A stretch of DNA of 64,000 nt from Takakia lepidozioides (Eukaryota > Plantae > Bryophyta), in the NCBI GenBank assembly GCA_030704615.1, contig CM060733.1, positions 26,040,001 to 26,104,000 of the forward strand, written 5' to 3'. Below, one piece after another: positions 3,700-29,586 of this stretch (position 1 is the first letter of the stretch; each line of letters begins with the position of its first letter). The position numbers were made by a program, and so were the translations under genes. The notes beneath the pieces are model-generated. The model searched no databases. It had not been told where the DNA came from and worked only from the letters and a program-made list of their open reading frames with translations.

Positions 3700-6021
3700 C
3701 AAAGTCATCCAAATTATTGCATACAAAACCTTCACATCCAACACGTGGGTCATCTGGCTAGTTTTTCACAAGAAGAACAAGCAAGTCGAGATTGCGTGAT
3801 TCGACATCGCCGTGGCCAGTAAGAAGACCAGCAATAGAGAACACACGTCCTGTCTCAATCTGACTTCCAGGGATGCCAAGGATATGTCGTACTAAAAATG
3901 CGACCATAGGGAATTTGCTTTCATGTACCTTCCACCATTCGAGTGGCTTCTCGGCAGATTTTGGTGGCACTACCATGTAACAAAAACAAGATAACTCGCG
4001 GCGTATCTGAAAAAAACAAAACAAAATACATCATACATAACCACACATCAGTCATCATAATGACATCTCGATCAAATAACAAATGATGACAACATTAGTA
4101 AATGAGGCCTTGCACATGAACTAAAAAGTTTTGAACTATCTACCAAGCCTAAAGTCAATTCCAACTCAATCAATTAACAATGCATACATATTAATTCAAC
4201 CAACAAGATGCATAAATACATAAATAACCAGCTCTTACATTTTCATGGGTGGTGTCATCCTCTGAAATTCCAGTTCCAAATACCGCATGGGCATCTCCAA
4301 AAATACCTTGGTCATTAGGTTCAATTGTCACATTTAAATCTGGATCCACCACTTGATTGTTTTTTTTTGTATATTGACGTCAGTAGCGGTAAAAGCATAT
4401 GCAAGTCATAGATCTGAGCAATCTAAAATGCATTTGCACGACCCACCAAACTCCCTATAAGAGTCAAATCCTTATAACGGGGATCAAGCATCAAGGCGAG
4501 CATGTTGTGGGCTTTCCTCGGTTTGTAAGTCACCGTAAAATCCAGAAAAGGGGCAAGAACTTTTATGACTTGTTCACGCATCCGAGCTTTTAAGAGCATG
4601 AGGTTGGCGGGCAAATCCATCCTCGGTGCGACCGACACTTCCGCCTCCAACACAATCCTCTCGCTCTGCAATTGTATACTTAAAGTGATTGCCGTTGCCA
4701 ATGCATCACTAAGTAGCCAATAGCCACGGCGTTGATTTATGACACAAACAGTTACCACACGGGATTAAGTTGAGGAGATTGCCTCTGCGACAGCCCAAGT
4801 TTGTGCGGATGGATCTCGGCCTTGAAGGGCAACCGTTTGCCGACTATAGCAAAGCGATATTGCTGGTCTATATTGCAAAGCTTGTTGAAACACTACCACT
4901 TTGGATGCAAACCTTGTTTTCACTGGTGTATTTAATTTTCGAGGGCGCAAACTAGCATCTTCACATGCTTTGTTCCATTCTTGTCGTCCTTTACCTATGA
5001 CACAAATGCAAACTCAATGTGATTAATGTGAATTTTGACCAGTAATGTGCTCGATTATAAATGAAAACATAAATACTACAAATTGCTCAACAACTCAGAT
5101 ATATATTAAAAGTAATTGCAGTGTACCAGATTTTTTGGGCCAAGTAATGCACGATTGGATTGCCGATTGTGCGCCTTTGATGGATATGGGCTCCAAGTTA
5201 TGAGACACCTGCTCATCATTTGTTGCATATTGACAAGCCTTGCTCATTGCGTGTCCAAAACAAATGCCCTCAAATGGCTCGGAGAGATATAATAAATCGC
5301 ACTTTATTACTGCCTTAAGAGCATAAGTCATTGTTGCCAAATTCGCGCCCTCATCCTTCACGTAGCATAGATTTGTTTTGGTCAAATCATATTTCTCCAA
5401 AAGCCCTTGGAGCTGACGGGCCAAACCTGCCCCGTGGTGTCTTTTGCCAGTAATGTGTTTTGGCTCCCACTCTTGTATTAAGAAATTTATGACGAGTGTA
5501 AAAGTGTCATGTGCACCTTTACTCATCCATAGGTCAAAAGTAGCAGTCGCTGTAACAGCCGTAGCCAAATAAGGACGAACATATGTATTCAGTGTATGCT
5601 TGACCATATTAGGCAAGACCTCCGAGGTCAATGGTCTACGAAATGGGAAAACAAGTTTCGGATCTCGTCGAAGGTAGCTGAGAGGTAGCTGCGTCTAACC
5701 CATCCATTCTCCACTGCACTAAGAGGCATATATCCCTTAGCTATGCATAGCATCAAATCTTCAGCAAAAGATTTTTGTTGTTCATCTTTTTTTTTTGTAA
5801 GGGATGGTACTTCCAAAAAAACTGGAAATACTGCCAGGTGTGACCCGATTTCGCTTTTTATGCGGCTCTCGATGCGTAGTACATGCATCTCCACTTGCAG
5901 TAATATTTGCTACGAACCGAGCCATCACCTCGGCATGCTCATTATCAACATGCTTTTTCTTTGCATTAATGGAAATTAGGAACGACGTCTTCACAGTCCT
6001 AAAGCTAGGACAGGCTAACAT
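3700..6021 (-). pseudogene. hAT (Ac/Tam3-superfamily) transposase, fragmented
   Basis: ATFDLWMS and YVKDEG (catalytic D, D), CFGHAM (CxxH), KTRFAS, ALMLDPRYK, and the C-terminal dimerisation domain PLEWWKVHESKFP...IPGSQIETGRVFS. Multiple frameshifts. A CGGGT-rich subterminal-like region lies at ~2765-3530. Confidence 0.85.
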
Positions 6022-6789: not shown

Positions 6790-7993
6790 AGCAGTGCATC
6801 ATGCACAATATGATTGGCAAGTGCATCATGCCCCTTTCTAGCATTCAAAATTGCCGTCAAAGTCTTGAATTGGCCAAGTACGGCCCCCTCATTAGGGTGA
6901 TCAAGTCTGTAGGTGCCTCGAAACTTGCAGAGATGGCATCAGCTCTGAGAGGGGCCAACCAAAACTATGGAAAAAAATCAAATGCCTAAAGGGCATTTGC
7001 CTGGTGCTTCATGCCCCTTTCTAGCAATCTAAAATGCCATCACACATCAGAATTGGCCCAGTACAGCCCCCAAGGTGTTCAAGCATGTAGGTACCTTAAA
7101 ACTTGCAGAAATGGAAGAGTCACTGAAGGGGCCATCCAAAACTACTAAAAAAATCGGATGCCTAAAAGGAATTGGCAGGTGCATCATGCCCCTTTCTAGC
7201 ATTCCAAATTGCCATCAAAGTCTTGAATTGGGCAAGTATAGCCCCCCCCATCAAGGTGTTCAAGCATGTAGGTACCTTAAAACTTGCAGAAATGGCAGAG
7301 TCACTGAAGGGGGACATCCAAAACTACTGAAAAAAATCAGATGCTTAAAAGGAATTGACAGGTGCATCATGCCCCTTTCTAGCATTCCAAATTGCCATCA
7401 AAGTCTTGAATTGGCCAAGTACAGCCCCCTCATCAGGGTGATCATTTGTAGGTGCCTCGAAACTTGCAGAGATGGCATCAGCTCTGAGAGGGGCCAACCA
7501 AAACTATTGAAAAAAATCAGATGCTTAAAAAGCATTGTCTGGTGCTTCATGCCCCTTCTAGAAATCTAAAATGCCATCATACATCAGAATTGGCCCAGTA
7601 TAGCCCCCCCCCATCAAGGTGTTCAAGCATGTAGGTACCTTAAAACTTGCAGAAATGGCAGAGTCACTGAAGGGGGCCATCCAAAACTACTAAAAAAATC
7701 GGATGCCTAAAAAGAATTGGCAAGTGCATCATGGCATTCCAAATTGCCATCACACATCAGAATTGGCCAAGTCACGTAGCCCCCCCATCAAGGTGTTCCA
7801 ACATGTAGGTATCTTCAAACTTGCAGAAATGGCGGAGTCACTGAAGGGGACCAACCACAACTATCGAAAAAATCAGATGCCTAAGAGGATTTTTCAGGTG
7901 CATTATGCCCCTTTTTAGCAATCCAAATTGCCATCAAAGTCTTGAATTGGCCAAGTACAGCCCCATCAAGGTGTTCAAGCATGTAGGTACCTT
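6790..7993. repeat. Tandem satellite, ~181-bp unit, ~6.5 copies
   Basis: The motif catcatgcccctttctagc...aaacttgcagaaatggc recurs at about 6825, 7008, 7184, 7366, 7546, 7728 and 7901. Confidence 0.95.
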
Positions 7994-8567
7994 CACTACA
8001 AGAGAAACTGGTTTTTTTTACACCCATTTTTACACCTGCAGGTATAAAAAAAGCCACCTGCTCACACCCCCCTGGGTGTAAGGTAAACCGTATTGATTCC
8101 GTCCCCCTGTAGAAAAAGCCAGTGGTGTCGAAAAAGCCATCTTACACCCATCTACACCCTGACGTGGCGCCCGGCCTATCTCGCTTTTTTGACATGATTT
8201 TCTTTACACCCGTTTTGACTGGCTTTTCTTCATCCATTTCGACTGGATTTTTTGACGGCTTATCTTACACCCTGCTTGACAATGTGGCGAATTCAAAATT
8301 CAAAATTCAAATTAAAAGTTTATAATTAAAAATTTATAATTAAAAATTTATAATTAAAATTTTGGCGGTTCAAAAATTCAAAAATTGAAATATGCGTTGA
8401 CCGTTGACCCCGCCCCATCCCAGGTCAATGGTTGATCGTACACCATCTAACACATTACTAGACAATACACACTTGAACCTAAGACCTCCTCATTATAACA
8501 TCACTAAGTCACTATACACGAACCAACATACCAATTACACATACATATACATTGTATATAAATATAA
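7994..8567 (+). mobile_element. CACTA (En/Spm) left terminus and subterminal region, truncated
   Basis: CACTACAAGAGAAA starts abruptly inside a satellite unit, followed by TTACACC subterminal repeats. No matching right TIR was found in the window. Confidence 0.65.
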
Positions 8568-8613
8568 CTAGGGCTTCGCGTTGCTCCGCACTACTAGCGA
8601 CGACTTCTGAGAA
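8568..8613 (-). mobile_element. HLE2 3' terminus (subTIR + GNA mini-hairpins + CTAG-TT)
   Basis: Minus strand reads GTCGTCGCTAG-TAGT-GCGGAGC-AAC-GCGAAGC-CCTAG|TT; 8566-8613 is 45/48 identical to 29539-29586. Confidence 0.75.
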
Positions 8614-8847
8614 GGACGTCCGGACGGATGGGCCATACTGGAGGAACTTGAGAGAGAGTTGGAGGTGTTTTCCATGGGTCGTCTTGGTGCAACAAGTAGA
8701 TTTGGACTATGATAAATCAGTATTTTTTTATTATTCGTTGTGAGCATGCATTGGAAAATATAGACTTTTTGAAAAGGAGAAGGAGGATGGTCTTTATAAA
8801 ATATGGTGGCCCTTACATGGAACGTTTAGAAGTGTCTAATTTAAGCT

Positions 8848-9582
8848 CTACCAAGCTATGCTTTTGCTCCAGTTGTCGTCGTTCGATTCTGTCTCTTCTG
8901 GTGCTTTGGCCAGCAGTTTGACCCCTTTTAATTGGAATGAAAGCCCGTGTTTCTTGTGACGGAAATTCATCCAATATCGGATGTTACACTTGATTGCAAC
9001 AAGATCCCCTGAACGTACGGATTGTCCATCCATTTTTTGGCCATTTTCGTTAAGGACTTCTATTGTATTGTACATCCCGTCATTGTTTGTTTTGTGACGT
9101 TTGTTGTTATTGGACGTCGATCGAGAGTTGTTTGTGTTGTTTTTTAGGAGCTTTTTCGTGAAGCTCATGTTGTTTTCACCCATCCACCTCATGTCCTCGC
9201 CTCTCCTCTTCCAATGATCGGACCATTCCGTTATTGTATTTGCGTAGTCGAACTGGAAATGGCTGTCTTCTATCAATAATGTGAATTTTGCGTCTTTTAG
9301 TTCTTCGGCGAAAGTCACGAATCTGTAATTCCCGGTTTTGCCAAGGTAGGGGAATTTTGCAATACCTACGAAGATTGCTATTTCTTCACGGTCCGAAGGG
9401 ACGTTCCACAAGGCGCTGTGGAAGTTTGTACTGTTGGGCAGGCGCTTCCACGTGTTCCCCACCTTAAGGGCATGATGGTCATTGGACGTGAAACTGTCGT
9501 ATATCACGTTTGTCATGTCTTGGTGGGTTATGTCTTTGTCTGTTACAGTGTCGATTGTGTCGGCTATTTCTGATGTTGACAT
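8848..9582 (-). CDS. Intronless 244-aa protein, putative T7 gp2.5/viral-type (OB-fold) single-stranded DNA-binding protein
   Basis: Uninterrupted ATG-to-stop ORF. The C-terminal pattern IEVLNENGQKM..VRSGDLVAIKCNIRYW...GLSFQLKGVKLL followed by an acidic tail ending in an aromatic residue resembles gp2.5/DUF2815-like SSBs. Its CpG-rich style is like the RepHel ORF. Confidence 0.6.
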   Translation of the reverse strand: MSTSEIADTIDTVTDKDITHQDMTNVIYDSFTSNDHHALKVGNTWKRLPNSTNFHSALWNVPSDREEIAIFVGIAKFPYLGKTGNYRFVTFAEELKDAKFTLLIEDSHFQFDYANTITEWSDHWKRRGEDMRWMGENNMSFTKKLLKNNTNNSRSTSNNNKRHKTNNDGMYNTIEVLNENGQKMDGQSVRSGDLVAIKCNIRYWMNFRHKKHGLSFQLKGVKLLAKAPEETESNDDNWSKSIAW

Positions 9583-9638
9583 GGTTGTTTGTATGTATGG
9601 TGTAGAGAGAGAGATAGAGAGGCGGGGGCAGATGAAAG

Positions 9639-9676
9639 TATATATCGGTGGATTTTTGAGGAGAATTAAACCCTAA
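9639..9676 (-). promoter_or_regulatory. Putative promoter of the 244-aa ORF: TATA box and telo-box
   Basis: TATATA ~57 bp upstream of the ATG, CT-rich leader, and AAACCCTAA at 9668-9676. Confidence 0.4.
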
Positions 9677-11459
9677 GAGTGCGACTGTAAAATTAATCAC
9701 GTTAATCTATAGAACTGTGGTTGTCTCTCTCAGATCGAGGTTGATGCTACACCGCTTTGTTGGGAAGTTAGGTGCAAAGTGCAATGCAACAATATGTTAT
9801 ATTTTTTTCTGCTCCACCTGCACTTGCAACAAGATGTCACTGTTAAACCTTATGGCTATATTTCTTTGCTTGTGTATTGTGTGTAATTCGGTAATTCTTT
9901 GGCTACCCAAAGACTGGATCTCACAACTGGCTTGTTTTGCAATTGCCCTTGGGAAATGACCATCTTAATTGCACATGTCACGTCACTTCAAACAATTATA
10001 TATTCAAGACTTCTAGTGCAGGGTTTGAGACTTACTGTCCAGTGGCATTAGGGCAAGCGACACTGTGAGCGAGAGAACCACGAAAGTAGTTAGATCAGCA
10101 GGTTGAATTGAACAACTTAGAGAGGAGTAGTGCTTAGGGCCCTGCCCACTTGCACTTTTCAGTTAGTGTCTGCAACAGTTAGTTAGTGTTCCAACTTACA
10201 GTTAAATGCATCCCCCCCACCAAAAAAAGAAGAAGCTTGCTTCAGGTTCGCTGAACTTAAATGTGATGATACCCGTTATCTTAAACTGTCTTCGACACAA
10301 AATCCGCCACCTGGCTAATCGGAAGTATCGAGTAGCCTCAAGTCTTGACTAAGTTTTGTAACTCACCAAGTTCCATCAAATCCAGCATTTTGAAGCAAAT
10401 TGTTCCACATACATGAGGGGAAATCTGCTATGGGCCTCGTTCAGTTGAAAGCTTCTACTTCCTCTTAATGTGGAAGTTGAGGACCTTTCATGGACTTCAT
10501 GCCGCAGATCTGGGAGGAGAGAATTTTTTGTCTCCTTTGGCAAACTCTATGTTCTTCCAAAAGCAGGGTCGACCAAACTCCCAAATAAAGCACACTAAGT
10601 AACTAGAAAACTGACCTGCCAAGGATAGAAACAAATTTGCAGTAATTTTCTTTCTATGAACTGGGAAGCAGGAAGGTAGCTTCAGAAAGCTCCAAGGTTC
10701 TCAGGTTCTCAGGTTCTCTTTGAAGCTTCTGAGAGGACGTAGATAAGAGGGACGAATCGCGTTTAAAGAGACGAGAGGTTTGCAAAGTGGAGTTTGAGGC
10801 CGATTGATAACAAATCAAGCAGTAGGATGCCCTGGCAGAGAACAGGTCTTGTTGGGTTTCACATCTGTCTCTGCATCCATAATCACTCCACCAATGCACC
10901 CTAACTTGGTTACAGCTTTTGGTGAACAATCGAGATCCTAAACCCACACTTAGACCAGTCTCTTGTTGGATATTGCTGAGACCTGCTGATGCAAATGTCC
11001 CACTACAATTTTTAAGCTAAGGCTCATACATTTGTAGCCAAGAAGTGCTTTCAAAGTGGAAGTGGAAGCACCAATTTTGGTTCTTATCTCACATGACAGT
11101 CGTCCTTTTGACAAGCAGCAACTACCCAGTCACAGCTACAAGGGAGCTAAGTGTTCATCCAGTGCTGTCAGAACCTAAAGTGATATGTGTGGTTTATAGC
11201 ATATCAAGATAGGAATAAAACCCAAAATAATGTGGACTTTAAGCCTATTAACTCCACATCTAGAACAGGAAACCCCGGTCAGTGCTGAGGACTCATAATC
11301 AAGACTCTGATGGTGTTGTTGTGACTGCCAGCCACAAGATGGAAAAGATGTTGTTTGAGAGAGAGAGAGGGGGAGAGAAAGCCAGAGAGGCCAAAATCAG
11401 GGTAGCTAAGAGGCACCTTCTACTTGATGATAATTCCCTCTTTTGACAGTGGCCTCATG

Positions 11460-12550
11460 ATGAGTTAACTTGTGTGTGGGGTGTCATCACTTTCGCCGGC
11501 TACTCAAAACAAATAGAGACACGGACTGGAGACAGGTGAGTGAGCTCACTAGATATAAGAGCCTTGGGTCTGGTCTTGAAGGGGAGCTTGTGCCGAATAA
11601 TGCCCACAACTTGCATTCCCACATTAACAGGAGCTGCCTTGACCGGTGAATCAAAGTCCATGACATGGGAGGGCTTCAGCTTTTTGAGAATCACTAGTGG
11701 CTTCTTCAGTGGAACTTTTGTGCCCTCCAGCTCATGGTAGCCAATGACAAATTTATATTTTTTCTGTGAGCAACAGTACATAATGCCTCAAAATACAGAA
11801 GTTTGCTCGAGCATTTCCCAGTTTCTTTCAAAGAATAATGTAGGCATGAAATTTCTGCTCCGAGTTTTTCAAGTCATTCATGTTTCCAAATGGCTAATAG
11901 ACAGATCTTTGTTATCAGGTACACAAGCTTCCACAAACTGCTTGGGCTGGTACATTTGGTTGCCAACCCTCATAACTGCTCACTAAGATTCTGCAGCCCC
12001 AGCTTTTGATGGCTGACCAAAGGAGCACTTTTAATGTGATAGAGGAATATGACTCTGAAATTTCTATTTCGAAAGCTCCAAATGTGGCAACTTCACACAA
12101 GTTATGCATCTGGAGAATTTACACCAGGGCTAAGTCCTCCCATTATTCTGTGATGAGAAATTTAAGAATGCTTTATGTATGTTATTAACTTTTCCACAAG
12201 CAAGTTAGGCCAAGGGACTGAACAGTACACCCATCTGCTGTGTCCAGCAAACCTGGATTAGATGCATCGAACCCTGGATATTGCATGAGCCACTAATGTA
12301 GCCAGGACACAGTCTAAAATCTTGGTGTCTCCTCGAGACAAACCATAGCATGGAGGCTCATTGTCAAAACTGATGTGAACACGTAGCGAAAATGAATAAA
12401 GAAAAAATGAAAGCATACCTCAGACGTAAAACACAGAGACCCGATGGTCAGATTGTGCGGGCTGGCAGCATGCTGGATTTCTAGAGAATCCTGGAGCTCC
12501 ACCATAGCCCACTCTTCACACTCTCCGCAGCCGCACTTCACCGGTATCTG
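11460..12550 (-). pseudogene. CTF8: Chromosome transmission fidelity protein 8 (Ctf18-RFC subunit), probably damaged copy
   Basis: Exon ~12550-12419 reads QIPVKCGCGECEEWAMVELQ...; exon 11763-11550 reads KKYKFVIGYHELEGTKVPLKKPLVIL...VVGIIRHKLPFKTRPKALIS. No in-frame ATG at the expected start (TGG), ELQG reads ELQD, and the last intron is very short. Confidence 0.8.
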
Positions 12551-13465
12551 CCACCTTTCCCATGGACTGCATAGGACATCAAGAGTCTTTTGACATGGTC
12601 AGGGTTGCTGAATACTAGAAGAAAAAACATCTGATTTGTGATGATTTCAATTGGTGAGAGTCACCAACTTGTGGACAGGAGGGATTGAGCAAACACAACA
12701 GGGAAGCATTTCCTGCAGAAACAAAAACCATTACCCTGTAGACTGAAAATGGTCCTTCACTACAGAAGATGGATTATCTGCCAGACTCTTTCTTCATTGT
12801 GACAAAGTGAACTCTGGAACCATCACCAGGCTTATTCTCATATCAATGTCATGAATAATAGGGAAATGGAATGAATCTAAGATTGAGATCCACAGACAGC
12901 AGCCTTAGTTACTGAGTAGGAAGAGAATGCATTAACCTTTCAGACAACTCATCTACATCCACCTAAAGTTGGCATGATCAAGAATGCTAGCTGCAACTAT
13001 TTTGCTGCTTATTGAACTCCTGACGTCTTCCTTCAAACAAACGGAGAGGAAACAGACTATCAAATAGACTGAAATGGGGAGGAGTCCATACTATATCCTC
13101 CTTGTGACCCTCAAGGCCTAGACTAGCCAAACTCGGTTTCCAAGCCAGGTTATTGCAGGCATGCAGCACTTACAAGCACTGCCCCTTGTTTCACAACAGA
13201 TGTTCTGACAAATTGTACTCAGTAGCATTTATCGTACAGGGATGCAAACAAACGCATATTGAGAGAGAGAACTCATCAAAACATAGTTTATGATAGCCTT
13301 GTGACCATAGACCTGCACCTAGTTTGCGTGGAACAAGAGGGAATGGATCACATTGTCTTTGTGAGGCTCAATCCTCTACTGGACTTACCTTGGTATAAAC
13401 AATTATTCAGGCTTTCCAGATGTCTTCTAGAAAACCCTTCACAAGGATCAATCTGCTGTGTGTGA

Positions 13466-13825
13466 CCTACCCAGCAATCTCCATGTGCGTTGACTACTCC
13501 ATCTCCCCACCTGTTTATTTCTCTCTCTCAAATCAATCTTTCTCTCCCACGCGTTTATTTCTCTCTCTCTCTCTGCGTTGACTAGTCCTCTTCCCCACTT
13601 GTTTACTTCTCTCTCTCTTTCCCTGTGTGTTCACTACTCTCTCTCTCCTTTTGCACATTCACTACTCCCACGCGAGCGTACCTACATAAATCAACTGTTT
13701 TTCTCTCTGCGTTCAAGGAATGACATCAAGGAGTGACGGTTTAAAGCAGTTCAAGAAGTTTTTAGACAGTTTAAGGAGTTCAAGAAGTTTTTATACAGTT
13801 CAAGGAGTTAGAGAAGTTATAGTTA
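13466..13825. repeat. CT-rich ~40-bp minisatellite followed by ~30-bp tandem repeat
   Basis: gcgttgactact/ctctccc..gtttatttctctctc units, then cagtt(c/t)aagragttcaagaagtt units. Confidence 0.6.
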
Positions 13826-14553: not shown

Positions 14554-17500
14554 TCATATCGGGTCTTCGTATTGTGAATGTTGTTTTGGAAATGGATCGA
14601 TTCTTCGATTGTTTATGCAATCTCTCAAGTGGGTTCTCATGGCGGATGTTGCGTATCGTGAATCTGCGATAATCCGAATGCTATATCCGTGGCATAAGCT
14701 ATCGTAAATACGCCACAGGATGAACTGTCACTTTGTTGCATGACATCTGCATAGAAATAATTGAATTGTGGGACTGGGATTATTTTTTGTAGATGTTGTT
14801 CTATTTCGCTCGGTAGCTTCTTATCCGCGGGCATGCTGGAATCAAACACCGTACATTGATGATTCGTTCCGTTCGGGTTTATCATGGTTAAAATCCAATG
14901 GTTGTTGTTCACGAACACGTGCTGCAGACATTTCTTGATGTATTTTGTTCTGCCCAATAGAGTCGAATACACATGTTGCTGGTAGTTTTGTGTTTCCAGT
15001 TCCTGATCAAATAGTATTTGCATCCCAGCCGCCAAATGCTGGTCACACAACCATCCGTTATCATCCAACAGGATTTGTTCGTCGTGCATCGTCAATATAA
15101 GATCTTCGTGCCAATATGTTTCTTGATGTATATGTGCGTGTTCTATGTTGGATTGTTTGTCTTCGGAGTCGATTTCTATGATTTCGACCGGTGTGGGAGA
15201 TAATTCTGAGCAAGTTTGGTTTTCATTTGGTTCTATTGGTGTGGGATGTTTGGCTTCAGAATCGTTTGTCACTTGTATTTTTTTGGACACATGTCTCGGT
15301 TGGATTGGATGTGGATGTGGATGTGGCGTTTTGATGGCAGGGTTGGTATTCACTGTGTTGATGTGTTCCGTGGTCTTGTATGATTTTTGTTCTTGGACAT
15401 TACAATCGGTTTGTGGAGTTATGAACTGCAGTGAGCCTGTCTTGAATTTGGCTGCTTGGATGTCTTCAAACTTGATGTCTCGAAGTATTATTAGCCCTTG
15501 TAGGGAACGCAAACGAGACAGTGTGACGTAGATATTGTGCATGTTCAACGGGTGTTCATCTGGTGGTTTTTGTAAGTCGATGACTATTCTGTCGAAAGTT
15601 TTGCCTTGACATTTGTAGTCGGTTAGGCAATAGGCGGGTATCAAAGGCAATTGGTGTCTGTTGATTTTGAATTTCTTTGGTTTTTTCTGTTCATCCTCCG
15701 TGTGGTGATAATCGAACGTTCTTGAAACGGGTGTAATCGGCACTACGTTTTCTGGAAGATTTTCTAAATTTACGTTGCTCAATGTTTGATGTTGACTGAT
15801 GAATTCGCTGAAGTCGATTAATACGTGATGTGGCGGGTGCATTAAGTTATCTTCCCGTACGATCCAATCGTCATCTGTTGTTGAGATCCCCACTATTTGT
15901 CCAACTGCACCGTTTACAAGCCCCAATCTAGGATACAAATTGTCGGTGAGCATGACTGTCATTCCTTTGTATAATCTCAAAAATGGAAGAAGATTGTGGC
16001 TTCTATTCTCGGGTACGGTCTGTCGGATTGTGAATTGGATCTCGTCGTGGAGTGCGTGCTTCTTGTAGGTGTCTGTCGCCACTATGGTGTAGGATGCGTG
16101 GTTAGATTTACGTGTGTAATATTCTATCATTTGGTGATTGATGGCGTTCTTTAACTGGTTACGAGGTACGATGTACGTTGCTTTATCCCAGGGTTCGTTG
16201 AGCGGGTTGACTTTCAGATTCGACATGAATCTTGTCTGTAATAATTTGAAATCCGTTTGGGTAAAGTTGTCTTCGCGTAGATTCTGTAGCAATTTTGCAT
16301 ATTGTACATCGTGGACTTGTCTCATTTGCTGGGTCAATATGATTGTGTTAGGGCGTATGTAATTTTCCCATAGGCTTTTGCCTATAATCTTTTTTTGTGT
16401 GTATTTTGTGAATGTGAATATGGGCTGTATGTTCGTTGAGTAGAGAGGCGCGTCGGTGACTGGTGGGAACTGCATGAAATCGCCCATGAACATTATGTTG
16501 AGTCCTCCGAATGGTAACATGTTTGATTTGAATTTTTGTAATTTCAGATGAATATCAGCGATCATGTTGCATCCGACCATAGATACTTCGTCTATAATCA
16601 AATAGTTAGTTCCCGACCATTCGTTTATGAAACTTTTTGTGTCGGATTCATTGATGCTCTGGCTGATTTTGAGTCCCAATAAAGTGTGGATGGTTGATCC
16701 CCCTATGAGGGTTGCGGCGTTGGCTGTGTAAGCACCGATTTTCAGGATTTTTGGTCTGTTGGTTTTATGAAGTACGTTTGCATTGCTTTAATTATTTCGG
16801 TCTTTCCCGTTCCGGCAGCACCTCCAACGTACATTAAAGTTTGTTTCCTTACATCGAGATGGTGATTTTGTGGGTCTATGAAACGTTCAAATGCTGATTC
16901 CTGCGAAGTGTTGAGCTTGTATTTTTTCATGACAAAATATTTAGCTATTTGATGTTGATCTGCATTGTGTACGATATCGGGATCTACATCGTAATTGTTG
17001 TCATCTGGGATGTCCATTGGTTTGTTTTTTGAAATCTCCCTTAATTCTGGATTTTTGTGGTGAAGTTTATCATTTTTAGATGACTGATTTGGATTTGCGA
17101 ACTCGTACAGTTCGTTGTCAATGCCAACGGGTGGATTTTTGGATTCGCGTAATGTTTTCAACCATTTATTGATCTGGGTTCTATTTGATTTTTTGGATGC
17201 AGTTTGGACCATTCCTATTTTTGGTGCGGTATGGGGTTGTGGTGATATTTTCCCGTTGGCATCTGTAACGAGCTTGTTGATAATTTCGGCCACGTAATTG
17301 TTTTCGCTTGTATTGCACATAAGATATTCGATTTGTAACTTCTGGCCATTTGTGACTATGTCTTCTGTATGTTTCGACGCTGAATTCTCGTCCACATATA
17401 TATCATCGTCATCGTCTCCGTGCATTTCGTCTGGCATCTCATTGTATAAGGGGTCGATGTTGATGTCTTCTGGGTTCTCGTCATCGTTTGGATTTTCGTT

Positions 17501-20500
17501 CTTCAGTAACAGTCTGTCGGAGTCTCGTGATTCTTTGCATTCATGTAGCATGCCGATATTTGCGATGATTTTGCTGTTGAATTCCGAACATATTGGATAT
17601 AATTCGTCGAGAGCGTCTTCCCAACTTTGTTGCGATCTTGGCTTTAAGTCGTGGATAGATCTCCATGGCATGAACAGAATACAAATAGCGCGAGCGTGCG
17701 TTGCCGCATCATTTTTTTTCGAAGGTATTTTGTAGCCTTGTATTATTGGCACTTTGGTTACTTGAGATTCATATACACTGTGGGTGTCACTTTGCGGATG
17801 TTCATGCATGAATTTGTAGTAGTACGGGCTTCTCACTTTGCACGATTTACTGCAGAACTCGTAAGGTGACATTTCCTTGAACTTGTGTGGCCTGCTTTGG
17901 TAGTCGATGCGAAAATTATACATAATCAACTTGTCGTTCTGTTTGGATCTTTCAACTTTGAATGTTTCGAAGGTGTTTTCGGGGTCGTTATCGTCAGGTG
18001 TGCTGTTCAGATCGTTGTTTCCATCTTTGTTCGATTGAGATTTTTCTTGTTCGCGAATCCATGCTGATAAACTATACCATGGCAAATATGCAAATTGGTG
18101 GTCTGTCAAATGGTCTGGATATTTCATAAGGTAACTGACTGCCCTTGTCGCCGAGATTTCTTGTTGCGATCCGATCGTGTTTAAACATCGAATTAGCAAT
18201 TTGCGGCTTTTCTCAACTGAATATTCGGAATATAGATCGTCATAAGTCGTTTTGATCTTTTTTACGGCTATTTGCAAAAGCGAATACATGTGTGATGTGT
18301 AGACGGAAGATTTTGTGATGTAATCCGTGATGTAGTATATTAGAGCCTTTGCGTCTTTCCCTGAAGCACCGATGAATTTCAAATCGTGGTTGCATCTTCC
18401 TGATACTAACATCCATATATTTGCGTTGTTCAACCATCTGTCGGTTCGTTTTATATGCAGCAGCCCGATTTCGTCGTCGAAATGCGTTTTTTCAACTAAG
18501 ACAGCGGGAAATCCGTATCTACAATTCTTTTTGAAAACGTCTTCGTTGGTTTTGTAACACGCAGGATTGCAGACGTGGCGATTGCATACATTCAGCAATT
18601 TTGAAACGTCGCGCGCAAAGTGAGCATAAAATTTTTTAGAGTGAACATCGGGAGATCTAGTAGTGCACGGATGGATTTCGGTGTTTACATTGTTTTCTTT
18701 GTTCTCGGAGTCAGTGGTATTGGTGGGTATATCGTCGTCGATTGGTATTTCGGATGTGAATTGGATCAAGTCGCGTACTATGATGTTGTCCAAATATGCC
18801 AGCATTTTTCGTTTGAATTCTTCGTCATCTTTTAGTTTTTGTACGAGGTCGTTTGGATTTGGGGCATTTTCTAGCCACAACAATGTGTGTATGTGAAGTG
18901 AACCATTTTTCGCGGTTTCATAACAACCGTAATATGCGTTTATGTTTCCAAGTACTCCTGTATTTGTTGTGGTAGTTTTGGCAGTCTCTCTGACACGGAG
19001 TAGGTATTTAAAAATTGCATTCACGATGATGTGTACAAATTTAGCTTGAGATCTCGGATTCGTAGTGGCAATTGCACGTCTTTCATTGTGGTCCGGGAGG
19101 TTGTCGTCGAAAAAAATGTCGAGATTGATGTCGTTCCCACTTAGTAGAGACACTAGAGGATGATGTACGAATGCTGGATTCAAAGTGAAGAATAAACTTG
19201 GTGTTCCCAACTGCTGCATCATGCTAAATATTTCGTTTCTCTGTGTTGCTCGACTGCTTCCAGATGCCATCACGTGTTTACTTGATACTTTCAAGTGTCG
19301 CAATAACTTTTGTATTTTCGGTTTGTTGTTTATTGATTTCACGTCGTCTATTATGTCGTTGAAGTCTTCTGAACGGATATTGTCAAGGAGTTGTGCTTCA
19401 CTTTGAAATGTCGATCTCGACACTGTCAATTTTGCGCCCAGGCATATTTGTCTACGTTGCATCAAATTGAACATGAAGAATGGAAACAAGTGGTGTTTCG
19501 AAAAGTCGTGATGGATATCGGTCAAACTCATCAAATACTCAACGTGGGCCTCCAAAGTTACTTTAATTGGACGGTTTTTCATTTCGGTTACGCCGATTCC
19601 AAACGGAAATAACGTTGGAAACATACACGCGATCAATTTTGGGTTTGCGTATTCGTTCACCATTTTGGTTTCATGCGTGTATGACAGATACATATTTTGT
19701 TGTAGTTGCAATCCATTTAAAGCGTTGGAGATTAGGTCGTTGTGCTTTATGTCAATTCCGTCAAAATCGATGAGTCCGGACGTGTCTATGACGGGCTGGA
19801 TCGTAGCGTCATTTTTGTTTATTGGTGTTTTTTGGTTGTGCAAATCCGTTATGTTGGTACGATGTTCAGCGTTGGCGAAGTCAATGTCCGTGGATTCAAA
19901 CACCGATCTCAAGATTGATGGTGGAATATCGTTCTCTGGTAGTCCATCCAATATGTCGTTATCAATTTGAATGTCTTTGTAACCCGTGTGATTATTTTTC
20001 AGCCATGTTAACCATGTCGTCACTGCAAGTCTACGTACGTATAGTAAATTACATGTTTTCACGACGTTAATGGGTGGATGTGAAGTGCCGACGAAGTGGA
20101 CGGCAACAATATCGGATAATGAATCTAAGGGTGGTGGCAATTTGTTTAGCAATTCGACCGCACGACCTGGATTTTGAGTAAAACTCACCAAATTTCCTCT
20201 CAATGCGCGTTGCCCCTTTCCGCCCTTATTTACATAACGTAATTTGAACAACATCACACGACAACGGTATCTTGCTATTAACGCTTCTTCAACCATGGTT
20301 AATTTTGGCAAAATGTCGTGAACTTTTCCAAACCACAAACCGTTAGCGAGTGCAAATTTTGGCATCTTGTTCTTTTTCAAGGTGGAACTGCAGTTTTTAC
20401 AAATGAAGATGGTGCGTGCATTATTTGATACTCCTCGTTTGTCCAATAACAACCCATTTAATTCGTCCAGCTGATGTTTTGTGTCATTGATCAATTCTTG

Positions 20501-21478
20501 GGGAACCTCTTGTAGGAGAATATGTTCTTCAAAGTGGTTTTCTACTTGTAAGCTGAGCCATTTCTTCATGTGTTTTAAGATCTCACTGTGTAATTCATCG
20601 ATTCTCCATTTCAACATGTTAGAGGTTACTATGTCTCTGCTGCAAACACAACAATATAGATTTGTGAAAGTCGCATTACTAATGTATTCGTTGAAGTTGG
20701 ATAAACAAAACAAGTTATTCTCCAGGCATATTTCTGGTGGGAACTCATGATCGTTCTTTGGTTTTTTTGCAAGAGTGCAATACATTTGTTCTCTTTTTCT
20801 TTTGAGTTTTTCCTTTTCTTCATTTTCGTGTGTAATATATTTCTGAATTTGTGCTGCACATATTTTATTTTTGATCAATGGATCTTGGTTTTTTTGGAAT
20901 GCATATTTTGCCCTTCGTTTCGCATTTGTTTCGTTTGGATCTATTTCCGTGGTTTGTGGTGGATTTTCGATTCTGAATTTTTGTCTACGTTTAGCATTTG
21001 TCTCGTCTGGATCTATTTCGGTGGTTTGTTGTGGATTTTCGATTCTGAATTTTTCCCTGCGTTTAGCATTTGTCTCGTCTGGATCTATTTCGGAGGTTTG
21101 TGGTGGATTTTCGATTCTGAAATTTTCCCTGCGTTTAGCATTTGTCTCGTCTGGATCTATTTCGGTCGTTTGTGGTGGATTTTCGATTCTGAATTTTTCC
21201 CTGCATTTAGCATTTGTCTCGTCTGGATCTATTTCGGAGGTTTGTGGTGGATTTTCGATTCTGAATTTTTCCCCGCGTTTAGCATTTGTCTCGTCTTGAT
21301 CTGTTTTGGTGGTTTGTGGTGGATGTTCCAGTTTGTATTTTTCCCTTCGTTTAGCATTTTTTACGTCTAAATCGAGAGTCGGTTGAGATTTACATTTTTT
21401 CCGTCGCTCATCATTTAATTTCTCTTTATTTAAAGCATACTTTGCCCGTCTCTTGGCATTAGCAATTTCTTTTTCCAT
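14554..21478 (-). CDS. Helentron/Helitron2-type RepHel polyprotein: N-terminal repeats, Cys-rich domain, HUH Rep, Pif1 helicase, Ulp1/C48-like cysteine protease; two frameshifts
   Basis: Rep motifs PSLFFTLNP, ETAKNGSLHIHTLLW and YYITDYITK; CKNC..KMPKFALANG. Pif1 motifs GAAGTGKT, AYTANAATLIGGSTIH (other frame), IIDEVSMV, GDFMQFPPV, LTQQMRQ, AYCLTDYKCQGKT and YVTLSR. Protease motifs HW..D..QQSDSSSCG. Frameshifts at ~16765 and ~14670. Confidence 0.93.
20900..21360 (-). repeat. 72-bp (24-aa) coding tandem repeat in the RepHel N-terminus, ~6 copies
   Basis: ETNAKRREKFRIENPPQTTEIDPD units. Confidence 0.95.
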
Positions 21479-22669
21479 TTTAACTTAGAACTATACACAT
21501 CTGAAAATATGAATTATAAATAAATAATTATATTGACGGTGGACATATTATTATTATTATTATTATATTTTGTTTTTCAGGATGAGGGGGATTGTAGCCC
21601 TGTAAATGTATTAAAAAGGGGATAACATTCGCGTTTTGATAAAATAAATAATAACTGTTCAGATTTATATAAAATTTTAATGAAAATAGTTGTTTTTGAT
21701 AAAACTCATCTCTTGATAAAAACAATTATCATTGTTAAAAATCCAGGTTGATAAAAACAAACGTTTTTGATAAAAATCATTTGTCTTGATAATGATGTTG
21801 ATATTGATATTGATAATGATAAAATTGATGATAAAATTGATATGATATTGATATTCATAATCAGTCTTCATACCTTCTTGCCCTGAATCATCACCCCACC
21901 CTAAAACCATAAGTTTGCAATCATGATACACAATCTCAGAAAATTCTAAAAAGTGTACTATTGTCACCGCTCAATTGTCTGAAAAGCTTGCAGACATTTA
22001 TGCGAGATCAGGAATGAGCTTTTAGGATAGTTTCGAGATCCTCTCATACGAAGATATGAGTTTGGTGCACTGTGAGAAATTTGGGCTGGCTGTGGACCCA
22101 CCAGTATCTCCCAATGAGTTTTCTTTTGGTGGTCCAACCGTCTATCTAGCAGACATGTCGGTAGAAGTAGAGCATGATGCAGCCAGAAGAATTTTCAAGA
22201 GGCAGTGGACAACCATGGCTATGGTAGGAGGCAAATGCTATGCTTTTGAGTTTTAGCTACTACTTGTTGGCCAGTAATCTAGGGGCTTGCTATGCAAGGA
22301 TTAGGTGTTGACCTAAGGGACCATAATCAATGAAATCTGACTGTACAACAAAGATATTTTCTCTTGCCGTAAATGCATAATAGAAAATGTACCTGGAAGC
22401 ATCATTCGATTAGGGACCCTCTCACAATCGGTTATTTTTTGGCAGCAACACCTAGTGAAGACGAAAGGCATAGTCCATTGATGTTTGATTCAAACCCAGC
22501 TATGCTGATTGAGGAATTCCAATAGGAGATGGCCCTTCATAAAACCAGGAAAATCCCACATCAGAACGTATAGGCTTACAAATACATACAGATCCATTTC
22601 CACTTTTTCAGTGCTCAAAGACTGGCACATGCATCAGAATACACATGAGGTTCACCTACCAGGCATAAT

Positions 22670-23880
22670 TCATTCACTCAACCAGTAACTTGCAGATTTC
22701 AATAAGAGGGGAAAACAGGGTGAAATGTTTTGAAGGCACTTCATCTGCCCAGACAATCTTCTCAGCTCAGCATGGATTTCCTTAATTCTGGGATGCCATC
22801 TACAGCGAAGGTGTGCACTTTTGTTGCAAATCTCAATGCAGCAGTGACCTACCTCCTTTCTAACCCTTCTGACCTTCATCATTCTTCTCACCAACTCCTG
22901 TTTTTGCGATGCAACCATGCACCCCTTCACTCATTTCCAAGGCTGCCAGGATTTGCACAAGCATTGCAAATGCACACAAACATGATGTGGCGAGGCTTCA
23001 CCCCTTCCCCCATAATTTGCTCATAGGTCTCCGAAACCTCCATCCCACGTCCTACCCTGCAAGCAACGCGTTCCACGACATCACATTTCATTCAGCATTA
23101 TAGTGGAACACTGCCTTCGCATCCTTGATGCTCCCACATTTGGCATACATCTCCACGAGGGCATTGTTAAGAATAACATTGGGTACAATTCCAGCTTTGA
23201 CGATGTCACCATGGACCTCTTTCCCCTTTTCCAGGGCTCCCAAGCTTGCACATACAAATTACGGTGATGTGGTTGGGCTTCACCCCTTCGCAGAATACAC
23301 ATAAGTTCCTTTGGTTTGCATCCTCAATGCACCCAAATTTGGCATACATGCCCACAAGGATATCGTACAGAATCACATCTGGTACAATTCCAGCTTTTGC
23401 GATACAACCACGCACCTCTTGCCCTTTTCCAGGGCTGCCAGGCTAACACAAGCATTGGAATCACAAACAAACGTGATGTGGTTGCCCTCACCCCTTTGCA
23501 CATCATTTGCTCATAGGTCTCCAAAGCCTCCATCCCGCGCCGCTGCTGTGCATACCCTACAAGCATCGCGTTGGGCAGTGTTCATAATGACATCTGGTAC
23601 AATTCCAGATTTGACGATGTCACCATGGGCCTCTTTCCCCTTTTCCAGGGCTGCCAGGCTAGCACACGCACTGCAAATGCAAACATACGTGCCTTTAGTT
23701 GACCATCTACCCATGCAGGTTACTTGTAGCTATTGATCCACAGAGAATCATAGGTAATCTGGAGCTTGAAGTCCGGTCCCCTTGGATGAATCTGGACCCA
23801 CACTCTATCCCTGCTCCTTCAACTATCCATGCCTCTGCACAAATCATGCATACATCCTTGCCTTGCTGCTAGCAGCTGAC
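22670..23880 (-). pseudogene. PLS-class PPR pseudogene (copy B) with E+/PG-box remnant
   Basis: Frameshifted PLS motifs; VRKEVGHCCIEI..HPRIKEIHAELRRLSGQMK; its 5' segment 23695-23735 matches 28880-28920 of copy A. Confidence 0.75.
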
Positions 23881-24403
23881 AATGACAGCCTGTGACAGGC
23901 TCAATAAACTCTGGAATAGAGCTCCAAAGCCTCCATCCCGCGCCCCTGCTGTGCATACCCCTGCAAGCATCGCGTTCCACGACACCACATCTCGTTCAGC
24001 CATAATGCTGAAATTAACTCCATTCGCATCCTTAATGCACCCACATTTGGCATACATGTCCACCAGGGCAGTGTTCAGGATGACATCTGGAACAATTCAA
24101 GCTTTGACGATGTCACCATGGACCTTTTTCCCCTTTTCCAGAGCTCCCAGGCTTTCACACGCATTGCAAACACAAACAAACGTGATGTTCTTGGTTTTCA
24201 CCCCTTCACACATCATTTGCTCATAGGTCTCCAAAGCCTCCATCCCGCACCCTTGCTGTGCATATCGTGCAATCATCACACTCCACGACACCACATCACG
24301 TTCAGCCATACTCCATTTGCATCCTCGATGCACCCACATCGCATACATGTCCACCAAGGCAGTGTTCAGGATGACATCTGGTACAATTCCAGCTTTGACG
24401 ATG

Positions 24404-27400
24404 CAATTCCCTTAATAAATTTGAAGAGAGCGTCTCTTTGGTAAGAGAACCCCGGACAGTGTATCAGAAAATGAATACTATCTTCAGATTGCCCACACAA
24501 CGGGCAATTGCACTCTCCCTTTCCTCTCTGCTTCAGTTTGCTGTTCAAAGGTAGGCTTCCTGCCCTGAGTTTAAATTTCAGTCTAGTGCCGAGAGTGGGT
24601 AGACCCTTGAGGTCATCCAAGATGTCCTCCCCCATGTCACAGACTGGAAACAAGTTCAGGGAAGTTTTCTGCCTAACTTCATTTTCATCAGACAATCTCA
24701 TGGCAACAGACATGGCTGAGGACACTACAGCCTCTAAGTCAGATTTATCCAGCAGGGTCAAGACTTGCGGATCCAAGTCCAGGTCCTTGAGGATCTCTTC
24801 TACTCTCTTCTGCCAGGACTTAGCCTGTTTGACAGGGCGGTCCTGTTTCCAAGATATAGAGTCGATTAACTTAGGATATCTGGTGTTGGGCATATGTTGC
24901 AGCTGACCCCACCATCTGACCTTGAATTCATCTTGTCGGGAGCTTAAGGACGGAATGCCAAACTCACCCCGAACAGCCACATTGGCTGTTTTGGAGCATG
25001 CTGACATACACTCCTTAAGCACCCCCACTTGAATGGATTCTAGAGACTTAGCCTGGTTGGAGTTATCAACCCATATAGCAGATCCGTACTCCAAGGCAGG
25101 TCTAATAACGCGACAAAGCATGGTTTTCTTAACCTCAGAGTTGACCCCTCTGCAGTGGAAAAATTTAGTGAGCCCCAGAGCTTTGCCCTTGCCAGTTTAA
25201 ACAACTTTCCGGATATGTGCATCCCATTACAATTGGAGGAGAACTCAACGCCCAGATAAGTGTAGGAAGGGAGGACCGGGATCTCTTGGCTACCCCACTG
25301 CCACTTAAGATCACTTCCTCCCTCTCCTCTGTCGTTGAATGCTACCACTGCACATTTGCTGACATTAGCCTCTAGCCCCCAAAGATCAAAGTATCTCTTC
25401 GCGCAATCAATCAACTCCTGGAGATTGGTTGGAGTCTCCCCTATGCCTGCGAAGTCATCCGCAAACATAAGAACTGGTATGGTGGTATCACCCACCCTTA
25501 ACCCAAATCCCTCACTTTCCACATCCTCGAGGAGTTGATTGATGAAAACATTGAAGAGCAGAGGGGACGGAGTACATCCTTGAGCTACACCTTGGTTGTC
25601 AAAGAAGTTGGACTTCTGTCCGTTAACAGTGACACAGCTTTTGGTGTGAGCATACAAGTTGCAGCACTCTTTATAGAGGGCTCGTCTCTCAGCTATCTTG
25701 AGTTTAATCTCATTGGTCCACCAATTAACTGCTCTACCGCAGACAATTAGTTTCCTCCCAATGATCTTGTCAGCCACGGAGGAAACGAAACTCTCCCAAG
25801 AGTCCACTGCTCTTTTGACTTCATTTCTTGCGTTAACAGAGCGTGACTGAAGTTCTTGGAGCGATTGGACAAAATGAGGGAGAGCCTCTTGCAAGGCCTG
25901 GACGTACTCAGCCTTGACCTCCTCATTGTGGAATTCTTCTATGCGCCACTTCCGAATCGAACGTTTCACAGATCTCTTGGTGGTGGGAAAACACCTTTTG
26001 ATCTCAGTCCAAACCAGGAAGTGGTCAGAGGTACCAATATCAGTTCTGTCGATCAACACATTGGCACACTGGGGGAACAAAATTTTGTCCATTATGATAT
26101 AGTCCACAATGGAATGTTCCCCAGTTTGGGATTTCTCACGAGTCCACTGCACTTGGTCACCACTTGTCCTGTTATTCAAGGTCAAAAGCTGAAGCTCTTC
26201 TAGACAGTTAATTAACCATCTGCCATTAGAATTCAGCTCGTCCTCACCAAAAGGTCCAATGATATCGTCCTGATGGATCCCTTTGCCCACCCAGGCATTG
26301 AAGTCCCCCAATAGTACCACCTGACCTTTGGCAAGGAACGAAGCACAGTCCAGCTTTACATCTTCGAAGGCCTTGTCTGCGTCAGCACTAAGGGTCCCCT
26401 CTGTGGGCATGTAAACACAACCAACAAAGAGGTCCTTTGTACTCATGCCGCCCTTCAAATTCAGTTTTAGCCAGATACTATGCTCGTACCTCAAACCCTT
26501 GTTGATAATTTCACAATTGTCAAACAAGAAATCACGGACAAAGAATCCGACCCCTTTTTGACCGCGTTTGGCAGAGGCTGCCTTGAGAGTACACATCTTA
26601 CCTGCCCATTTATAACCAATGACATCTCCAACCAGTTTATCCGACGTTTCCCATGTTTCTTGCCCAGCACAGATATGAATATCATTAGTCCGAAGAACTT
26701 GTCCCACTTCAAGTTGTTTCCTTTGGTTGGTCAACCCTGAGAAGTTGAAAGTGGCCAGCCGCAAGCCAGCCCTTTGCGTGTGAATTGTTTGTCGTCTAGG
26801 TAGCTTGTGATTGCTCCTGGACGGCCAACCGTTCTGCAAAGGGGGGACAGTTACCCCATGTGTAGATTTTGCTCGTCTTGTGTAAACTTTGAGAATTGGT
26901 AAACCATTCAGGGTACCAAATCTTTCAGTTACACGACGCACAGGCTCCGCACACATAGGGGCAGATTGTCCGTCAGACTGCTTGGGGACAATTACCCTGT
27001 GTATAGATTTTGCTCATCTTGTGTAGACTTTGAGGATTGGTAAACCATTCAGAGTACCAAATCCTTCAGTTACACGACGTTCAGGCTCTGCACACTTAGG
27101 GACAGACTGTCTATCTGACGGCTTGGGGACAATTACCCTGTGCATAGAATTTGTTCGTCTTGTGTAAACCTTGAGGATTGGTAAGCCATTCAGAGTACCA
27201 AATCCTTCAGATTCAGGACGTTCAGGTTCCGTACACTTAGGGGCATCTTGTCTTTCTGGCTGTTTGGATTCAACCTCATCCAGAGCATCAAACCGATTAG
27301 AAACTCTCAAGTTGAAGTTGTTGCCCTTGGTTGTCTTCCTAGAGCGCCCGTTTGAATCACCAATGTCTAAGACCGCTCTCCAGCCAGTCAAGGGACGAAC

Positions 27401-27632
27401 GTCTTTGAGATTGAATTGATGCGGGACTCTATTAGAAGCACTTTTGGTCATTGCAACCTTCAACGTACCCCTGTTATCAAGTCTCGAGATGGTACCATTA
27501 GCCATGAAATCCAAGCCTAAGCTAGAGCATGTAGTTTTAAAGGACACATCGTCCATCCTGGGATTCACCCCAAAAACTACACATGAAGCCCTAGATTTGG
27601 CATAAGCAACCAATTCCCAGGGATCACCCTGA
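24404..27632 (-). mobile_element. Non-LTR retrotransposon (APE + RT + C-terminal zinc knuckle; RTE/RTEX-like rather than L1), defective
   Basis: APE motifs ATFNFSGL, QETW, GDFNA, VDYI and SDH; RT motifs QGCTPSPLLF, FADD and YLG; CPLC..HFLIHC. In-frame TGA at 27014, a frameshift at ~25230, and the early RT subdomains are missing. Confidence 0.88.
26850..27250 (-). repeat. 141-bp (47-aa) tandem repeat, ~3 copies, in the LINE N-terminal region
   Basis: The FGTLNGLPILKVYTR-coding motif recurs at 26881, 27022 and 27163. Confidence 0.85.
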
Positions 27633-29510
27633 GGCATACATGTCCAGGAGGGTATTGTTCAGATTGACAGCTAGTACAATCCCAGCTTTGATGATGTCAC
27701 CATGGACCTTCCTACCCTTTTCCAGGGCTGCCAGGCCCGCACAAGCATTGCAAACACAAACAAATGTGACCCGGTTGGGCTTCACACCTTCCTGCATCAT
27801 TTGCTCATAAGTCTCCAAAGCCTCCATCCCACACCCATGCTGCACATATCCTGCAATCATCGAACTCCAGGACACTACATCTCGTTCAGCCATATTGTCA
27901 AACTCTCTCTTTGCACCTCTGATGGTGCTGCATTTGGCATACATGTCCACAAGGGTATTGTTCAGAATCAGATCTGGTACGATTCCAGCTTTGATGATGT
28001 CTTCATGGACCTCTTTGCCTTTTTCCAGGGCTGACAGGCTCGCGCATGCATTGCAAATGCAAGTGAATGTGACCCGGTTGGGCTTCACCCCTTCCTGCAT
28101 CATTTGCTCACAGGTCTCCAAAGCCTCCAACTCATATCCATGCTGGGCATATCCTGCAATCATTATATTCTAGGACACTACATCCCGTTCAGCCATATTC
28201 TCGAACACTCCCTTTGCATCTCCGATGCTGCCACATTTGGCATACATGTCCACGAGGGAAGTGTTCAGAATGACATCTGGTACAACTCCAGCTTTGATTA
28301 CATCACCATGGACCTTTGCCCTTTTCCAGGGCTGCCAGGCCCACACACGCATTGCAGACACACACAAATGTGATCCGATTGGGCTTCACTCCTTCCTGCA
28401 TCATTTGCTCATAGGTCTCCAAAGCCTCCATGCCACACCCATGCTGCACATATCCTGCAATCATCGAACTCCAGGACACTACATCTCGTTCAGCCATATT
28501 GTCAAACTCTCCCTTTGCACCTCTGATGGTGGTGTATGCTCCCGCATTAAACATACATGTTCACAAGGGTGTTCTGTAGAAAAACATTTGGTTTGAATCC
28601 ACTTTGGGTAATGTGAGAGTGCACCTGCTTTCCCATTTCCAGGCCTTTTATCTTGACGCACGCATGCAAGAGACAGACATAAGTATCTGTACCTGCTGAA
28701 ATGCTTCCTTGGTTCAAAATTTGAAGAGCCTCTTTCAGTTTCCCTGCCTCACATAGTGTCCTCATATACCTGGAATTTTCAGAAGAGGTCCTGTGGACTC
28801 CCTCTCTTGGTCCTCTTTTGGAGGCTGTGGTCATTGTGAGAGTGCCTGATTTTATCAATTGTGCCCCTACTGCTGCTTGCAGTTGACCATCTACTCATGC
28901 AGGTTTTTTGTAGCTATCAATAAGACGGCCTCCCAAAACCAAGAAGACCCTCCCAAGTACCTTGTAAACACCAAGAAAAACCCTTGCGCAATGCAATTTC
29001 ATGGCCTGTTTAGGAACAACAACCTATGATACAGACAGAGACAGCCACTTTTGCAGAACAGAAAACCTTTTTCACATCATGTAAGAAGAAAGAGAGGCGT
29101 CCTAGGGGTAAACCCTCTAAACCTTGATATGTAGGTTGTCCCACCATTGTGGAGGATAAATATGCTCACCTTTTTCCCTGGAATTCTCACTGGAGAACGC
29201 TCTCCTGGATGCGCCGTTTGAAGAAATGCCCTCCGCACAGTCGAGCTCTGCCAAACCTACCAGGCCTTATCAACCTATGTAGCCATTGCGCTCGCGCTCT
29301 CTCTCTCTCCTTTGAACATCAAACAGAAGCAGGGAGGAAAAGGGTCAGTCTCGACGAAGTACCGTTCAAGAAGTTATTTTCGGCTTTTTCGGGCAATCCG
29401 GGCAGATAGAAAGAAATTGACGACGTACGAAACGTGGCTACGACATGTGGCGACGACACGTGGCGACGATGATGTGGCACTATGGCACCCTATTCCTGCT
29501 CTACGCTAAA

Positions 29511-29586
29511 CTAGCTCTCGACCTTCGGTCGTCGCTAGAACTAGGGCTTCGCGTTGCTCTGCACTACTAGCAACGAATTCTGAGAA
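29511..29586 (-). mobile_element. HLE2 3'-end / TT / 5'-end junction
   Basis: Minus strand reads ...GCAGAGCAACGCGAAGCCCTAG|TT|CTAGCGACGACC-GAA-GGTCGAGAGCTAG. Confidence 0.75.

Follow-up and report, generated by a model that had tools for sequence, protein, structure and literature searches.

[quoted passage not shown] They include PHRPA, the RPA70-like genes carried in monocots and dicots by canonical Helitrons whose ends are TC...CTAG (PMC4683698), and, in HLE2 elements, the RPA and Ssb-like_OB (PF21473) domains listed by HELIANO, of which RPA is enriched upstream of RepHel (PMC11417382). An intact open reading frame (P0001) near the 3′ end of an HLE2 (Helitron2) element of the bryophyte Takakia lepidozioides raises the question whether such transposons can also carry an SSB of the type found in DNA viruses. 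We addressed this question for a stretch of 64,000 nucleotides containing P0001, referred to here as the window. From the sequence comparisons described below we consider it probable that P0001 belongs to a land-plant HLE2 family as a conserved accessory gene, likely encoding a T7 gp2.5-type ssDNA-binding protein with a single OB fold.

The reading frame and its HLE2 element

P0001 runs uninterrupted on the minus strand (Table 1), intact and intronless as claimed by the initial annotation, which had also read from it the motifs SGDLV, YW, GLSFQLKGVKLL and EETESNDDNW...W, all of them present in the translation. At the local base composition the probability of 244 stop-free codons arising by chance is about 1e-6, and the plus strand of the same interval is full of stops. 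The protein consists of a family-specific N-terminal stretch of about 65 aa, a predicted core (residues 66-228) and a short, weakly acidic tail, the last 20 aa containing 5 D/E and 2 K/R.

Table 1. Features of the HLE2 element and its immediate surroundings, in window coordinates.
Feature	Position	Strand	Details
HLE2 3′ terminus	8567..8613	minus	subterminal inverted repeat 8604-8594, weak hairpin, CTAG-T end
Intact 244-aa ORF (P0001), T7 gp2.5-like SSB candidate	8848..9582	minus	ATG 9582, TAG 8848
Captured host CTF8 (Ctf18-RFC subunit) copy	10083..12553	minus	PF09696 E=1.5e-6, above cut-off
HLE2 RepHel	14554..21484	minus	DUF6570 (E=4e-39), Helitron_like_N, PIF1, C-terminal Peptidase_C48
Probable 5′ cargo: decayed PPR gene	22700..28650	minus	interrupted by LINE remnant (~24400-27630)
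Probable 5′ terminus	29511..29539	minus	TT, then 11-bp repeat within GAA-loop hairpin
3′ end of another family member	29540..29586	minus	head-to-tail against 5′ terminus

From the stop codon of P0001 it is 280 bp to the element's 3′ end, a distance proposed by the initial annotation and borne out by read-data contigs that break off at 8566/8567. At this boundary the contigs, taken from two runs (X1 and X3) of one sample, lose their match, and beyond it their flanks are unrelated (23, 28 and 33 contigs; agreement 0.40-0.46). The element ends with CTAG at 8571-8568 followed by TT, its terminal sequence is very abundant in the sequenced sample, and the region between P0001 and the terminus has deep contig coverage. 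A second copy of the 51-bp 3′ end (92%) is found at 29536-29586. The 3′ hairpin is not significant when compared with shuffled sequences (z -0.7; 45 of 200 shuffles fold equally well).

The 11-mer at 8594-8604 has its sole exact complement in the window at 29528-29538, where 0.006 would be expected by chance upstream on the minus strand. Since this complement lies on the correct strand, after TT and within a GAA-loop hairpin, the unit is probably about 21 kb long and would comprise, in this order, the 5′ end, a PPR pseudogene with a LINE, RepHel, CTF8, P0001 and the 3′ end. That the 5′ and 3′ ends are those of a single unit is an inference, and a copy extending from one to the other was not observed.

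The element resembles HLE2 and FoHeli elements in its DUF6570 RepHel, Peptidase_C48, asymmetric terminal inverted repeat, GAA-loop 5′ hairpin and TT flanks at both ends (PMC11417382, PMC5148889), DUF6570 being a marker of HLE2 (HELIANO, PMC11417382) and GAA-loop hairpins being found at the 5′ ends of FoHeli1/2 (PMC5148889). Its RepHel has Rep and Pif1 domains, and dispersed copies share the sharp boundary at the 3′ end. The RepHel reading frame is broken by two frameshifts, near 16750 and near 14660, and near 14667 most other RepHel copies differ from the window copy by 2 nt. A 72-bp (24-aa) tandem repeat lies at the RepHel N-terminus (20820-21395).

The CTF8 copy has exons at 12419-~12550, 11550-11763 and 10240-10870, and its two GT..AG introns are absent (spliced) from contigs of two runs that are probably RNA. 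Just upstream of the first conserved-looking residues an in-frame ATG was not found, and contig depth over the copy hints at multiple near-identical copies.

Several side observations concern repeats in and around the element. Decayed PPR sequence is found at 22486-24400 and 27630-28650 (minus) as well as at 30088-30350 (plus), and with a summed contig depth of 58,000-134,000 at 22486-23000, PPR fragments may be massively amplified in the genome. Between RepHel and CTF8 there are short high-depth repeats at 13291-13507, containing a splice donor, and at 13942-14158; as 13945 is linked to the 3′ terminus in one contig, the latter repeat may belong to a non-autonomous derivative. The head-to-tail junction at 29511-29586 is what a tandem insertion or a circular intermediate would be expected to produce. 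Just beyond the HLE2 3′ end lies a CACTA-type left end with subterminal TACACC repeats (7994-8300, plus); a CACTA element may have been the target into which HLE2 inserted, its possible right end lying at 33681, and there is a further CACTA start at 29860. At 7000-7990 there is a degenerate tandem repeat array, and a fragment at 5095-5694 (minus) resembles a hAT transposase by eye, with no Pfam match at 0.01. Neighbouring genes in the window (PPR, Na/H-exchanger, P450, PGG) point to a land plant.

Linkage to RepHel and selection in related elements

An exhaustive search returned 30 homologues at E≤0.001, mainly fragments, the best covering 231 aa at 32% identity. Linkage was analysed in the best 80 of 126 confirmed loci in metagenome contigs, found with a narrower alignment and representing 44 insertions; as these loci are drawn from few metagenomes, they do not represent independent hosts and together amount to about one additional host. 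Their flanks contain plant U-box/ARM, MLKL-like kinase and LTR-retrotransposon sequence (Pfam matches in 4 of 10 scanned ORFs), and these plant-type genes identify the related loci as plant DNA.

Amongst these best 80 of 126 loci, RepHel lies downstream of the SSB-like gene on the same strand in 49, corresponding to 28 of the 44 distinct insertions, or 24 of the 31 insertions with at least 3 kb of downstream sequence, the first RepHel match occurring 0.9-3.5 kb beyond the start of the SSB-like gene. In the same set RepHel is never upstream on the same strand (0/44), is upstream on the opposite strand in one of the 28 insertions with at least 3 kb of upstream sequence, and was not found in 16 of the 44 insertions. 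The related elements terminate about 100 nt past RepHel with a terminus related to that of the window (9-13 mismatches in 38). All 80 loci are decayed, the longest stop-free matching stretch measuring 137 aa.

Close copies of the SSB-like gene show a dN/dS of 0.64-0.69, falling to 0.18-0.20 at dS>0.7, and RepHel behaves alike (0.69-0.75 and 0.20, respectively); codons were chosen by an identity filter that biases dN downward equally for both genes. In the SSB-like gene, singletons are spread evenly over the codon positions (117/103/111), and shared variants favour the third (80/57/139). The two patterns are those of a transposon gene that is selected while active and decays once inserted. In 21 insertions the distances between copies of the SSB-like gene correlate with those of RepHel at r=0.95 (0 of 2000 permutations), a value fed by both subfamily structure and copy age.

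The gene resides in the transposon, travels with RepHel, has its terminus type and is selected like RepHel. The initial annotation's proposal of an accessory gene of an HLE2 lineage thereby receives strong support from linkage, the common 3′ terminus, the distance correlation and purifying selection resembling that on RepHel, with a dN/dS of about 0.2 between subfamilies. One could argue that the ORF is instead an ordinary host gene or passive cargo, like CTF8, for the element does carry host cargo (CTF8, PPR) and the position of the gene in the window is unlike that in relatives. This explanation is largely refuted and highly improbable: the gene has a fixed place beside RepHel in another plant, it lacks introns, many diverged copies exist in the sequenced sample, and selection is visible only between subfamilies, with every one of the best 80 of 126 loci decayed.

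Profile comparison with T7-type SSBs

Out of 38,880 families, P0001 matches the gp2.5-like PHROG112 best, over residues 171-238 (E=0.0039); the homologue P0003 matches it with E=0.0018, and the remaining 53 of 55 members do not match it. No relevant match of P0001 or its family was obtained in Pfam, including DUF2815 and DUF2738, the gp2.5-like SSB family of nucleocytoviruses, nor in NCBIfam, PDB sequences or a phage tblastn search. Pfam contains no model for the SSB-like family, which a scan of that database would therefore overlook.

T7-type viral SSBs comprise T7 gp2.5 (PHROG112) and Enc34 ORF6/DUF2815 (PMC5686142, PMC4889955), which are homologous by crystal structure (PMC5686142). We compared the 55-row alignment of the SSB-like family (A9) by hhalign with T7-type profiles made from the SSBs of T7, pelagiphage, Ralstonia, Vibrio and Enc34 and from their viral relatives. 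Locally, A9 aligns to the T7/pelagiphage SSBs with a score of 33.4 (P 3e-4), against 21.0 for the next best of 27 other families, 11-12 for reversed controls and 14 for the best of 60 block shuffles scored against the pooled SSB profile. Scores at background level were obtained with the E. coli-type SSB (10.9) and with the three-sequence Enc34 family alone (12.4 local, 4.0 global). With a T7-type HMM, 14 forward members score above every reversed one. HHalign probabilities range from 33 to 75%, and no score reaches database-level certainty.

The local alignment spans residues 171-228 only, and this would fit a genuine HLE2 accessory gene whose gp2.5 likeness amounts to one common beta-hairpin motif in a protein that folds differently and does something else, for instance acting against host silencing or as a binder of the termini. 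The absence of a T7 counterpart for about 65 conserved N-terminal residues and for many conserved Trp points in the same direction, as does a tail that is non-acidic in most relatives. Such a coincidental motif is nevertheless unlikely, since a global alignment of the core (66-228) to T7-type SSBs contains every core element in order over 145 columns, scoring 30.5 (P 1e-5) against 8.5 for the next family. The scores also exceed the calibration of T7/pelagiphage against Enc34 (25.7 local, 23.5 global), and each half on its own ranks T7-type SSBs first among 28 families (HHalign probability 75% for the C-terminal half, P 0.04 for the N-terminal half).

In the alignment G73 pairs with T7 G11, Y79 with T7 Y16, helix 110-126 with the T7 long helix and W204 with T7 Y158. 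The position matching Tyr16 is aromatic in 26 of 28 sequences, and its column is conserved among the T7-type SSBs too. Tyr158 of T7 is required for ssDNA binding (PMC5686142), and its column, which also holds Enc34 Trp150, is aromatic in 26 of 26 family sequences and W or Y in 40 of 40 on the T7 side. The predicted order begins with strand 1 (G-I-A-K-F-P-Y), continues with strand 2 and the long helix that follows it, and closes with strand 3 and two C-terminal strands. AF2 models of the protein are of low confidence (pTM 0.27 and 0.32), and structure searches with the pTM 0.32 model were uninformative; the model places helix 110-126 after a strand at 99-103 (pLDDT about 65-71), the strand numbering being taken from the T7 alignment.

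A ssDNA-binding OB fold of a different or very diverged lineage, be it RPA-derived, hSSB/archaeal Ssb-like or from a giant-virus branch, would leave the function intact and render 'T7-type' and 'viral origin' too specific. HLE2 elements with RPA and Ssb-like_OB domains are already known (PMC11417382), and RPA, PF21473 and DUF2738 lie outside the set of profile-profile comparisons. This possibility is a rather improbable one, given the background score of the E. coli-type SSB and the predicted long helix after strand 2, a hallmark of T7-type SSBs that is missing from other SSBs (PMC5686142). Moreover, none of the 55 aligned members matches the Pfam models of RPA or Ssb-like_OB, in agreement, as far as these models reach, with the non-RPA nature claimed by the initial annotation.

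Homology to T7-type SSBs is supported at the profile level by a moderate match in controlled comparisons, and a T7-type OB fold is likely. The acidic tail with terminal aromatic residue is not a trait of the family: of the 12 aligned sequences long enough to include the tail, only 2 have a clearly acidic one, most of the others being decayed copies. The family shares with T7-type viral SSBs the core profile match, the aromatic residue at Tyr158/Trp150 and a single domain of 200-240 aa, and a long helix after strand 2 is predicted for it. It differs from them as a plant nuclear transposon gene, with the extra conserved N-terminus, a low-complexity loop ahead of the C-terminal strands and a weak or absent acidic tail.

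Gene order, proposed role and origin

In relatives the order is SSB-like gene, RepHel, 3′ end, whereas in the window it is RepHel, cargo, SSB-like gene, 3′ end. The place usual for the gene in this family is upstream of RepHel, similar to that of RPA in HLE2 (PMC11417382), rather than near the 3′ end, and the window order looks derived. Elsewhere in the sequenced sample there are copies with the end of RepHel linked to the 3′ terminus, at joints 8613-14571 and 8613-14600, which are defined by their two sides. As RepHel is joined to the 3′ end without the gene between them in the window's own species, gene and RepHel are not inseparable. The simplest reading, and a likely one, is that the window element is a composite, formed by end-bypass or nesting from a RepHel copy and an SSB-plus-3′-end unit. 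The composite would run from the 5′ end through PPR cargo, a RepHel without its usual adjacent 3′ end and CTF8 cargo to the SSB-plus-3′-end unit, which resembles the RepHel-less Mothra mother element (PMC4683698). Alternatively, a subfamily may have its own gene order. A rearranged copy is seen in metagenome loci L058-L060 (10028-16433), where the helicase region contains, 6 kb downstream, the SSB-like gene's C-terminal half.

As the profile best matches T7-type SSBs and the gene is a long-conserved second gene, it is likely that these transposons are copied with the aid of a virus-style helper that they carry themselves. In such a peel-and-paste replication, RepHel would nick the 5′ end and its Pif1 helicase would peel the strand off, while the putative SSB would coat the displaced strand, protecting it and preventing it from closing up before circularisation and insertion. 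The SSB would act in cis or in trans, replacing host RPA, and the window copy could supply it in trans despite its broken RepHel. The same strand-coating role has been proposed for the RPA-like genes of other Helitrons. Like PHRPA, the SSB-like gene accompanies RepHel as a second gene for which ssDNA binding is proposed, and RepHel-less derivatives, known as semi-autonomous elements in the Mothra family (PMC4683698), may exist here too; unlike PHRPA, it has no RPA Pfam match and is located in HLE2 elements.

In the HELIANO supplement, DUF2815, DUF2738 and gp2.5 have 0 occurrences (PMC11417382). The literature searched, with subscription journals and Repbase reports mostly outside it, yielded no T7-type SSB in any transposon and no Helitron with gp2.5, in keeping, within this limited reach, with the initial view that a virus-like SSB in HLE2 is undescribed.

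We know of no report to date of the T7-type SSB family from outside viruses. The gene would have been captured from a DNA virus, likely as a further independent SSB capture by Helitrons. A broader and more tentative reading is that of an HLE2 lineage, old and widespread in seed-free plants and in basidiomycete fungi, with a T7/giant-virus-type SSB as core second gene, which would be the first such family resident in cellular genomes, holding a viral replication module and repeatedly spawning SSB-only helper elements. If the assignment is true, a T7-type SSB under purifying selection beside RepHel represents a further, non-RPA acquisition and a direct connection between DNA viruses and Helitron evolution. 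Being small, single-domain, intronless and intact, P0001 is expressible and assayable, unlike its decayed relatives at the best 80 of 126 loci, and it makes the question of what Helitron SSBs do a testable one.
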